NCBI GenBank assembly: GCA_963741385.1
Contig: CAVUHO010000003.1
Span: 257,129 to 321,128, forward strand
Length of the DNA: 64,000 bases
Direction of reading: 5' to 3'
From: Candidatus Sulfomarinibacteraceae bacterium
Lineage (GTDB): Bacteria; Acidobacteriota; Thermoanaerobaculia; Thermoanaerobaculales; Sulfomarinibacteraceae
Shown here: positions 29,784 through 51,674 of the stretch, piece after piece
Layout: each line of letters starts with the position of its first letter
Position numbering within the stretch: the first letter of the stretch is position 1
Program-made: the position numbers and the translations under genes
The notes under the pieces: model-generated
Databases searched by the model: none
Told to the model about the DNA's origin: nothing
The model's input: the letters and a program-made list of their open reading frames with translations, nothing else

Positions 29784-29823
29784 AAATCCGAAATCCGAAA
29801 TCCGAAATCCGAAATCCGAAATC
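29784..29823 (+). repeat. heptamer array (AAATCCG)5
   Basis: Five exact copies plus a partial. Confidence 0.95.
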
Positions 29824-30200: not shown

Positions 30201-30241
30201 GGGAGGGTGGGTGGGAAATCCGAAATCCGAAATCCGAAATC
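30201..30241 (+). repeat. GGGTGGGTGGG core plus (AAATCCG)3
   Basis: Direct reading. Confidence 0.9.
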
Positions 30242-49908: not shown

Positions 49909-49984
49909 ATTTCGGATTTCGGATTTCGGATTTTCCACCCACCCTCCCACCGACGGGAAACGTCCGAGTGCTGAGGGTGGGTGG
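49908..49984. repeat. (ATTTCGG)3 plus CCACCCACC...GGTGGGTGG core
   Basis: Begins at the BMP stop; the core shares CCACCCACCCT(C/G)AGCACTCG with 48063-48082 in inverted orientation. Confidence 0.85.
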
Positions 49985-50085
49985 AGCCACGTGCGGCGGA
50001 GGTGCCATTTTCAACATTGTTGGACACCCGAACACCCACTTCGGCAAGCCGCCTCGTGCCAACAATTTTGAAGGTGGCTCCTCTC

Positions 50086-50137
50086 TTGACAGCGAGCGGC
50101 TATAGACTTATTGTGGCGATATCGCTACATATGTAGC
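50086..50137 (+). promoter_or_regulatory. sigma70 promoter and BlaI/CopY-type operator
   Basis: TTGACA-17 bp-TATTGT (50086-50114); perfect palindrome GCTACATATGTAGC (50124-50137) containing TACAnnTGTA. Confidence 0.8.
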
Positions 50138-50163: not shown

Positions 50164-50556
50164 ATGGTCAACCTCAAGGACCTGCCGCAGCTCAACCCGA
50201 CCGAACTCGAGGTGATGAAGATCCTGTGGGAGGCGGACGGCCTGAGTGCGCGCGAGGTCCACCAGCGGATCGGCGACCACATGGACTGGGCCTATTCAAC
50301 GACCCGAACCACGATCGAGCGGATGGTCCGCAAGGGTCTGGTCAGGAAGAACGTCTTTCACGGGCTTCATCTCTACACGGCTTCGGTTTCACGGGCCTCC
50401 GGTCTGGCGCGGATGGTGCGGGATTTCGCGCGCCAGGTGCTCGAGACCTCACACGTGCGGGTGGTGTCGCTGTTTGCCGACGGCGGATCCTTGAACGCCG
50501 ACGAGATCGACGAGCTCAGCCGTCTGCTCGATGATCCGGATCGTGGGGAGGCATAA
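50164..50556 (+). CDS. BlaI/MecI/CopY family transcriptional repressor
   Basis: ELEVMKILWE, WAYSTTRTTIERMVRKGLV, LNADEIDELSRLL. Confidence 0.93.
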   Translation: MVNLKDLPQLNPTELEVMKILWEADGLSAREVHQRIGDHMDWAYSTTRTTIERMVRKGLVRKNVFHGLHLYTASVSRASGLARMVRDFARQVLETSHVRVVSLFADGGSLNADEIDELSRLLDDPDRGEA

Positions 50557-50580
50557 TCGTCGATGAGGAGGTGCGGCATC

Positions 50581-50928
50581 ATGCCCATAGTCGTCTGGCA
50601 CAACCCCGGCTGAAGTACTTCGCGGAAGGCGGTCAGCCTCCTGCGCGAACGCGGCGTCGAACCCGAGATTGTCCAGTATCTGAAGAACCCGCCGTCGGCC
50701 GCCGAGCTCGACCGGGTCCTCAAGGCTCTGGGGATGAAACCCAGGGACCTCATGCGCCGCAAGGAAAGTGAGTTTGGCGAGCTCGGTCTGGCGGAGCAGT
50801 CGCTCAGCCGCAGACAGCTGATCGCGGCGATGGTGGAGCACCCTCGTCTGATCGAGCGCCCGGTGGCGCTTTCAGGCGATCGCGCCGTTCTCGGTCGTCC
50901 TCCGGAAAAGGTTCTCGAGCTGATCTGA
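50581..50928 (+). CDS. arsC: ArsC/Spx-family arsenate reductase-like protein, probable selenoprotein (UGA at 50611-50613)
   Basis: RBS GAGGAGG; MPIVVWHNPG-TGA-STSRKA...VQYLKNPP...HPRLIERP. TGA occupies the catalytic Cys position of HNPxC and the frame continues intact to 50928. Confidence 0.88.
50621..50645 (+). promoter_or_regulatory. SECIS-like hairpin
   Basis: CGCGGAAGGC-GGTCA-GCCTCCTGCG; the apical loop starts with G, 17 nt after the UGA. Confidence 0.65.
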
Positions 50929-50983
50929 CTCAAACCAATCTGCGCCATCTGCGGGCAGAATATTTAGGCAGTATCAGGTGCTT

Positions 50984-51051
50984 CCCACCCACCCGGCAGC
51001 CGGGACGGCTGCCGGGTAGGTGGTGGAATGGAAAATCCGAAATCCGAAATC
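50984..51051. repeat. core, REP palindrome, core and (AAATCCG)n
   Basis: CCCACCCA-CCCGGCAGCCGGGACGGCTGCCGGG-TAGGTGG...AAATCCGAAATCCGAAATCG. Confidence 0.85.
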
Positions 51052-51071
51052 GACTATGAGAGGATATCTCC

Positions 51072-51674
51072 ATGCAACAGGTCCGCGACGATCTTCTGAC
51101 CCTGTGGTTCGGTGACAACCCCGACGACTCCGCTGTAGCGGCCGAGAAGAAGCAGCTGTGGTGGGGCCGCAGCCCCGAGACCGACGAGACGCTCAGCGAA
51201 CGGTTCGGCACGGCGTGTGCGTCCGCTGCGGTGGGCATTCTGGACCACTGGACGGGTTCCCCGCGCGGCCGCCTCGCCCTGATCCTCCTGCTCGACCAGA
51301 TTCCACGCGCCATCCACCGCGGACAGCCCGAGTCCTTCGCGCTTGACGCCGACGCGCGCAAGGTGGCGGCACAGGGGTTGGCCTCGGGGGCGGATCGTTT
51401 GCTGCGACCGATCGAACGGGTGTTTTTCTATCTGCCCTTCGAACATTCAGAAGAGCTGACCGACCAGGAACGGAGCGTTGCACTCTTCCGCGAGCTCGCC
51501 GATTCGGTTCCCGATGACGACCGCGAGACCTTCGACTTCTTTCTCGACTACGCGGTCCGCCACCACGCCGTCATCGCGCGCTTCGGACGCTTCCCCCACC
51601 GCAACGCCATCCTCGGGCGTCAGTCCACCTCGGAAGAGATCGCCTTCCTCGACCAACCCGGTTCGTCGTTCTGA
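51072..51674 (+). CDS. DUF924 family protein
   Basis: LILLLDQIPRAIHRG, FFYLPFEHSE, HHAVIARFGRFPHRNAILGRQST. Confidence 0.95.
   Translation: MQQVRDDLLTLWFGDNPDDSAVAAEKKQLWWGRSPETDETLSERFGTACASAAVGILDHWTGSPRGRLALILLLDQIPRAIHRGQPESFALDADARKVAAQGLASGADRLLRPIERVFFYLPFEHSEELTDQERSVALFRELADSVPDDDRETFDFFLDYAVRHHAVIARFGRFPHRNAILGRQSTSEEIAFLDQPGSSF

Follow-up and report, generated by a model that had tools for sequence, protein, structure and literature searches.

A putative ArsC-family selenoprotein gene with UGA in place of the catalytic cysteine codon in a Candidatus Sulfomarinibacteraceae genome

Is an in-frame UGA codon at the catalytic cysteine position of an arsenate reductase (ArsC) family gene read as selenocysteine (Sec) in a member of the Acidobacteriota? 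This question is raised by positions 50581-50928 of a 64,000-nucleotide stretch of DNA (hereafter, the window) from a Candidatus Sulfomarinibacteraceae bacterium (assembly GCA_963741385.1, contig CAVUHO010000003.1, positions 257,129 to 321,128 of the forward strand). Based on comparisons with related genomes, known structures, and the Sec machinery of the host, we consider it very probable that this locus, which we call Sec-ArsC, is a genuine ArsC-family selenoprotein gene, in which the catalytic Cys has been replaced by a UGA-encoded Sec. The coordinates of the gene and its surrounding features are collected in Table 1.

Reading frame, protein family and active site

When translated from its ATG, the gene encodes MPIVVWHNPG, followed by the TGA and then by STSRKAVSLLRERG..., with no further stop until the TGA at 50926-50928. 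The ORF (open reading frame) list generated with the standard code contains only a tail of 64 amino acids (50734-50928), so ordinary ORF calling splits the gene. A sequence-only reading of the window had proposed a hidden selenoprotein at this locus, citing this split, a strong ribosome binding site, an undisrupted frame after the UGA, the alignment of HNPG-UGA-STSR with the ArsC motif, and a hairpin whose G-initiated loop lies 17 nt after the UGA; each of these elements was recovered in our analysis. AGGAGG-type sites are found at the same place upstream of the start in the orthologues. The correction concerns more than one genome: gene calling truncates Sec-ArsC to a 64-amino-acid fragment here and in about 17 related genomes, which is an annotation artefact.

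Profile searches were run with Cys substituted for Sec. The product matches Pfam ArsC (PF03960; E = 2e-20, 73.3 bits against a cut-off of 24) and passes the NCBIfam equivalog model TIGR00014, arsC, arsenate reductase (glutaredoxin) (143.4 bits against a cut-off of 106.05), and its full-length matches to the ArsC structures 3f0i, 3rdw, 2mu0, and 1i9d have E values from 1e-24 to 1e-29. In the alignment with R773 ArsC (1i9d/1jzw), U11 falls on Cys12, R59 on Arg60, R93 on Arg94, and R106 on Arg107; the complete catalytic set of the glutaredoxin (Grx) type is therefore present, with Sec as the predicted nucleophile. The active-site motif is U-S-T-S in this genome and U-S-K-S, U-T-K-S, or U-K-T-S in the orthologues. 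An identity as an Spx/MgsR regulator was also considered and ruled out, given that the Spx-type models remain under their cut-offs (TIGR01617, 52.4 bits versus 75) and that the motif is UxxS, not CxxC. By these matches, the product is predicted to be a thioredoxin-fold oxidoreductase of 115 residues that belongs to the glutaredoxin-type ArsC family (TIGR00014/PF03960).

The in-frame UGA and its decoding

The conservation of the UGA was analyzed in related genomes. A six-frame search of 60 relatives identified the Sec-ArsC gene in 22 of them. About 17 congeneric genomes, and one from another genus (G026), have a single in-frame TGA at this same codon, with identities of 58-86%, while TGT or TGC, both encoding Cys, occupies this codon in G005 (same genus), G036, G033, and G030. 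Outside the lineage, all 74 best homologues, mostly from Proteobacteria, carry Cys (TGC or TGT). The compared genes are taken as orthologous because their neighbours are syntenic, with a Bmp-like gene upstream and DUF924 and DnaC-like genes downstream; their hosts are metagenome-assembled genomes of Thermoanaerobaculia / Ca. Sulfomarinibacteraceae. According to this comparison, the Sec form of ArsC appears to be fixed throughout the genus. Homologues are rare in the phylum at large: in an even sample of 401 genomes, 15 had one, and one other genome of this sample shows a TGA somewhere in its frame.

Selection on the coding frame is also apparent in the orthologues. For 13 Sec-type orthologues, the mean ratio of nonsynonymous to synonymous substitution (dN/dS) was 0.26 in codons 1-10, 0.10 in codons 12-22, 0.15 in codons 23-51, and 0.17 in codons 52-115. 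Since it is low both upstream of the UGA and from there to Met52, the two regions are evidently translated in frame. The orthologous loci L026 (G024) and L040/L046 (G007) show frame disruptions near the N-terminus or around codons 27-38, which may be real or assembly indels.

The Cys form of G005 (L027, C12:383786-384130) is a separate observation. It has TGT at the Sec codon and keeps the hairpin GGCAGGC-GGUCA-GCCUGUU. This form is nested among Sec forms, resembles that of G006 most closely, and occurs in a genome that has selA. The position of the Cys form among Sec forms and the retention of the hairpin suggest a recent Sec-to-Cys conversion that left a fossil selenocysteine insertion sequence (SECIS).

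Following the wording of PMC1088965, we considered as a SECIS a stem-loop that directly follows the UGA on its 3' side and whose small apical loop contains G. The hairpin of Sec-ArsC has nine pairs and one A.C mismatch, its loop starts exactly 17 nt after the UGA, and, folded alone, it has a dG of -13.9 kcal/mol (-10.5 to -15.5 among genus members). Across the 13 Sec-type orthologues, the third base is invariant in only 11 of the 115 codons, and five of these are consecutive, codons 15-19, which form the hairpin core; a run of at least five invariant third bases has a permutation P of 3e-4. Within the genus, the core CAGGC-GGUCA-GCCUG hardly varies; conservation over 15-nt windows of the gene peaks at nt 45-62, and synonymous divergence (dS) is halved in the hairpin segment. 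These comparative results indicate that the hairpin is constrained at the RNA level, beyond what chance would produce. Because the hairpin is nearly invariant, its support comes from conservation and not from compensatory change, and for the same reason we make no claim of covariation. In this genome, the hairpin has gained three extra base pairs at its foot, and in G026 a similar place is occupied by another hairpin, GCGCUGC-AGUU-GCUGCGC. An Rfam scan of 50500-51100 returned no SECIS family and only chance-level miRNA-like matches on the downstream inverted repeat; Rfam holds no model for this SECIS hairpin.

With respect to the decoding machinery, this genome (G000) contains a tRNA-Sec (76.2 bits in Rfam; identified by ARAGORN as SeC, with anticodon UCA) together with selA, selB, and selD, and selA is over the cut-off in 58 of 61 relatives. 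A second selenoprotein was identified outside the window, a peroxiredoxin at C10:337866 (+) (AhpC-TSA, 2.7e-37), in which TGA takes the place of the peroxidatic Cys (PGDFTFV-U-ATE). The SECIS of this gene, UGUCGGC-GGUC-GCCGACA, has a loop that starts 17 nt after the UGA, a geometry that it has in common with Sec-ArsC. The presence of this second selenoprotein gene is a reason to regard the Sec system as in use. Everything required for SelB-dependent recoding of the UGA at 50611-50613 is present, and we infer the actual incorporation of selenium at residue 11.

It is important to consider that genome-wide scans for UGA codons followed by hairpins yielded nearly all noise in this GC-rich genome; the peroxiredoxin was the only case validated, and the scans are no census of selenoproteins, since they were too strict to recover arsC itself. 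Two other candidates were discarded. The NapA-like molybdopterin oxidoreductase at C10:626740-629326 (+) is in two frames, split near ...RMKDGRFDKQGDF / EVSWERAFDEM..., which is a probable indel error; it has Cys at the ligand position (NARHCMASAV), ruling it out as a selenoprotein. For a Sec-type formate dehydrogenase, TIGR01553 gave sub-threshold matches without internal stops.

Several observations weigh against the interpretation of Sec-ArsC as a functional selenoprotein gene. As a single sequence, the hairpin folds no better than shuffled sequences; with a z score of about 0, single-sequence folding provides no evidence for a SECIS, and it was dropped in favor of comparative conservation. 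The minimum free energy structure of a longer piece favors a competing helix that takes in the UGA, the A.C mismatch in the stem of this genome occurs where its congeners have C-G, and covariation is almost nil, with only one-sided changes visible by eye (A-U to G.U, G.U to A-U). RNA runs were looked for and none was identified. Finally, one extra base in this assembly divides selA between two frames (C10:1038073-1039402 (-); L009, ~1478). Since this extra base is missing from short-read contigs of near-identical strains (runs X2 and X3), the split is probably an indel error of the long-read assembly and not a broken gene.

These points have to be weighed together with other explanations of the TGA. 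It could be a nonsense mutation, in which case the locus would be a pseudogene or only the 64-amino-acid tail would be expressed, as the standard ORF calling would have it. The sequence-only reading would have been contradicted by a genome lacking Sec machinery whose orthologues had no UGA; what we found instead was the complete machinery, together with the alternation of UGA and Cys at this codon that it had proposed to look for. A nonsense mutation is also hard to reconcile with the retention of TGA at this codon across about 17 species-level genomes (58-86% identity), with an intact frame whose dN/dS is 0.15-0.26 upstream of the TGA and from the TGA to Met52, with a ribosome binding site and start conserved at codon 1 and not at Met52, and with a constrained hairpin just downstream; we regard this explanation as very improbable. 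A sequencing or assembly error for TGC or TGT might seem less far-fetched in an assembly where apparent 1-nt indels split selA and the NapA-like gene, but the errors seen there are indels and not substitutions. Moreover, independently assembled Logan contigs of at least 99% identity that span 50611-50613, obtained from two studies (runs X1, X2, and X4), have TGA without any variant where TGC or TGT in the reads had been named as a refutation; they do carry a strain variant adjoining the UGA (50609 G>A). The TGA is likewise found in orthologues from many other assemblies, and the chance of such an error is close to negligible.

A further possibility is that the UGA is decoded otherwise, by near-cognate read-through as Trp or Cys or through a reassigned code, or that it is a point of regulated termination. 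Our analysis found nothing in favor of these possibilities. Insertion of Cys at Sec codons under selenium limitation occurs in other systems. In this case, Sec-ArsC and many of its orthologues end in a TGA stop, so that reassignment of the code does not apply; the genome has the complete Sec machinery and the gene a SECIS-like element; and the position is that of a redox-active Cys, the hallmark of Sec/Cys pairs. We therefore give these modes of decoding little credence, and decoding of the UGA as Sec is the reading that we retain.

Genomic setting and physiological role

By analogy with the established bacterial pathway, SelB carrying Sec-tRNA(Sec) would bind the SECIS hairpin and the UGA would then be read as Sec and not as a stop, while the second TGA, at 50926, which has no such hairpin, would terminate translation. 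The enzyme steps would follow the mechanism of R773 ArsC: the Sec11 selenolate, in the oxyanion pocket of Arg59, Arg93, and Arg106, would attack arsenate, and the Se-As adduct would be resolved by glutathione and glutaredoxin with release of arsenite. Relative to sulfur, selenium would have a lower pKa and be better both as a nucleophile and as a leaving group. A glutathione/Grx partner system for Sec-ArsC is plausible in this organism, whose genome has five genes with a Grx domain that score over the cut-off, as well as a GCS2-type ligase (87.5 bits). A GshB-like ATP-grasp gene lies about 1 kb from the best glutaredoxin-domain match (73.5 bits), and this region (C14:428395-430419) may be a glutathione-system locus.

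Directly upstream of Sec-ArsC there is a gene for a BlaI/CopY-family repressor, for which the NCBIfam CopY/BlaI models are below their cut-offs; the protein has no C-terminal Cys motif and there is no adjacent BlaR1/M56 sensor. No terminator-like site was found between the two genes. Their co-transcription in this genome is plausible, since the gap of 24 nt lacks such a site and a promoter-like site precedes the BlaI-like gene. This promoter-like site is followed by a perfect palindrome of the operator type, GCTACATATGTAGC, which is also found upstream of the BlaI-like gene of G012. The adjacency of the BlaI-like gene and arsC is limited to G000, G012, and, at a distance, G016. Because most orthologous arsC loci have neither the repressor nor the palindrome, we rejected the repressor as an intrinsic partner of arsC; it is a lineage-specific neighbour. 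A promoter of its own may also serve arsC, with a possible -10 box that overlaps the stop codon of the upstream gene; the orthologues mostly have TATGAT, TATATGAT, or TATCAT at 21-23 nt before the arsC start.

Besides the DUF924 gene, the other neighbours of arsC are genes for a DnaC/IstB-like ATPase, a SpoIID-domain protein, and a Bmp-like binding protein. The GC-rich inverted repeat downstream of arsC belongs to a repeat element that occurs genome-wide and that here includes (AAATCCG)n at 51033-51051. Tandem heptamers (AAATCCG)n with a GC-rich hairpin are found on either side of the blaI-arsC pair, at 49910-49985 and 50985-51051, inverted relative to each other; elements of the (AAATCCG)n type are also present at 29784-29812 and 30216-30237, and a related heptamer, GAATTCG, at about 60038. 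The 14-mer AAATCCGAAATCCG occurs 663 times in the genome, so this intergenic repeat family is genome-wide.

Table 1. Features of the Sec-ArsC locus, in window coordinates.
Feature	Position	Strand	Description
Promoter-like TTGACA-17-TATTGT	50086-50114	+	Upstream of BlaI-like gene
Perfect palindrome GCTACATATGTAGC	50124-50137	+	BlaI/CopY-type TACAnnTGTA operator-like; after promoter-like site
BlaI/CopY-family repressor gene	50164..50556	+	130 amino acids; Pfam Penicillinase_R 1.5e-26; ends 24 nt before arsC
CATAAT, possible -10 box of arsC's own promoter	50552..50557	+	Overlaps stop codon of upstream gene; putative
Shine-Dalgarno GAGGAGG	50565..50571	+	Read from sequence; 9 nt before ATG 50581
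Sec-ArsC coding sequence (putative)	50581..50928	+	115 codons including Sec11; translated with TGA=U
In-frame UGA, predicted Sec codon	50611..50613	+	Aligned to catalytic Cys12 of R773 ArsC; motif U-S-T-S (UxxS)
SECIS hairpin (predicted)	50621..50645	+	5' arm CGCGGAAGGC 50621-50630; loop GGUCA 50631-50635; 3' arm GCCUCCUGCG 50636-50645
GC-rich inverted repeat	50985..51023	+	18-nt arms; downstream of arsC; no T-run; may end transcript
DUF924 gene	51072-51674		Neighbour of arsC

An ars-type cluster was identified on the same contig (C3:202380-207880), about 100 kb upstream of arsC and about 50 kb before the start of the window. Its members are an ArsR/SmtB regulator, a permease, an ArsF-family protein, a DsbD-like membrane protein, Acr3 (457 bits), and a thioredoxin-type ArsC of the LMW-PTP (low-molecular-weight protein tyrosine phosphatase) type; the permease has sub-threshold matches to metal-efflux transporter families, and the DsbD-like protein was assigned by eye.

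Regarding the substrate, we lean slightly towards arsenate as the physiological substrate of Sec-ArsC. The estimate is kept moderate because the gene stands by itself and its nearest matches are the uncharacterised YfgD-like proteins, and, as it is located outside an ars operon, its activity as an arsenate reductase in vivo is something that we infer from homology. Two observations count against arsenate: the location of the gene outside the ars cluster and the lack of a demonstrated function for its closest relatives, the YfgD-like proteins. With regard to the partner system, the score of the GshB-like gene (168 bits) falls below the curated cut-off of 299. The selenoprotein could instead be genuine and yet be a YfgD-like selenol oxidoreductase with an ArsC fold that acts on another oxyanion or on a thiol/disulfide substrate, with arsenic resistance left to the Acr3 / LMW-PTP-ArsC cluster. 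Such a role would fit a gene standing alone among BlaI-like, DUF924, DnaC-like, and Bmp-like genes, with a complete ars-type cluster that has its own thioredoxin-type ArsC about 100 kb away. The best structural matches, 3f0i and 3rdw, are likewise YfgD-like proteins from structural genomics, our literature search turned up just two papers mentioning yfgD together with arsenate, neither of them on its function, and a 2026 review describes the functions of these selenoproteins as largely uncharacterised (PMC13188914). What speaks for arsenate is that Sec-ArsC passes the arsC equivalog cut-off and keeps every residue needed for arsenate reduction in R773 ArsC. As for its location, arsC copies outside ars operons occur in many bacteria, and proximity to arsenic-resistance genes (arsR, arsB/acr3), though usual for the family, is no strict requirement of it. 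On balance, we see another substrate as possible, though somewhat unlikely. More doubtful still is that the Sec-ArsC of this Thermoanaerobaculia family, retained by the lineage as a selenoprotein with an almost unchanging SECIS, would be a stand-alone selenol oxidoreductase of the YfgD type with another substrate, uninvolved in arsenic detoxification, and that here, behind a sensor-less BlaI/CopY-type repressor and its operator, it would belong to a redox/stress regulon.

Comparison with known systems

Among the characterized enzymes, the reference for Sec-ArsC is R773 ArsC, the glutaredoxin-coupled arsenate reductase of an Escherichia coli plasmid (1I9D, 1JZW). Both proteins align end to end (E = 3e-24) and have in common the HNPxC/U-x-TSR motif and the Arg triad. 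In contrast, R773 ArsC has Cys12 and not Sec, is encoded in an arsRDABC operon, and is 141 amino acids long, with a C-terminal extension that is missing from Sec-ArsC. The best sequence matches are the YfgD-like ArsC proteins 3F0I from Vibrio cholerae (E = 2e-29) and 3RDW from Yersinia pestis (E = 4e-28), which are also alike in length (about 116-120 amino acids), in their C-terminus (...LIERP...GRPPE.VLE...), and in being encoded by stand-alone genes; however, they carry Cys (HNPRCSKSR type) and not Sec. The UxxC selenoproteins known as 'arsenate reductase-like' or 'ArsC 2' (cd03032 / NF041106), of the Spx-like branch, also have the ArsC/Spx fold and Sec at the N-terminal redox position. They differ from Sec-ArsC in their UxxC motif, whereas Sec-ArsC has UxxS with the Arg triad and an Spx-type score of 52 bits versus a cut-off of 75.

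In E. coli fdhF, the SECIS to which SelB binds is a hairpin whose GGUC apical loop lies about 18 nt after the UGA. The predicted SECIS of Sec-ArsC resembles it in lying immediately 3' of the UGA and in having a loop that begins with GGUC, with a spacing of 17 nt. Its stem differs in sequence from that of fdhF and lacks a bulged U; the copy in this genome has an A.C mismatch instead, and SelB is predicted to bind it. The resemblance of the loop may allow expression of Sec-ArsC in E. coli. What is known of how Sec decoding works is left unchanged by this finding.

The closest counterpart of Sec-ArsC is a family of selenoproteins that has already been catalogued. 'Arsenate reductase' with a UxxS motif was described as a new selenoprotein family in the Sargasso Sea metagenome in 2005, with 14 sequences (PMC1088965). 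In the GOS data of 2008, 'ArsC 1, pfam03960, UxxS' comprised 77 Sec sequences and 784 Cys homologues (PMC2398784), and a further paper recorded ArsC-like selenoproteins in Desulfotalea and Desulfuromonas (PMC1794560). Two reviews include the family, one from 2022 (PMC9312934) and, under TIGR00014, the one from 2026, according to which no Sec-containing ArsC has been characterised biochemically (PMC13188914). The sequence-only reading had described Sec-containing ArsC-like proteins as rare and little characterised; the second part of this statement agrees with the literature, but those with the UxxS motif form a catalogued family and not a new one (PMC1088965, PMC2398784, PMC9312934, PMC13188914). 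Given that the family has been catalogued since 2005, the novelty of Sec-ArsC is low.

Sec-ArsC and this family coincide in their Pfam/NCBIfam assignment, in the U-x-x-S motif with Sec in place of the catalytic Cys, and in a SECIS hairpin with a small G-containing apical loop just downstream. By every sequence-level feature that defines the UxxS family, Sec-ArsC appears to be an addition to a family described in 2005 and not a new kind of selenoprotein. The difference lies in the hosts: the members known earlier are marine, mostly proteobacterial-like metagenome reads, whereas here the Sec form is genus-wide in Thermoanaerobaculia (Acidobacteriota), which would thus join the lineages that use this selenoprotein family. 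With its many Sec orthologues and a congeneric Cys revertant (G005), this clade would offer a natural series on what selenium adds to the ArsC active site.

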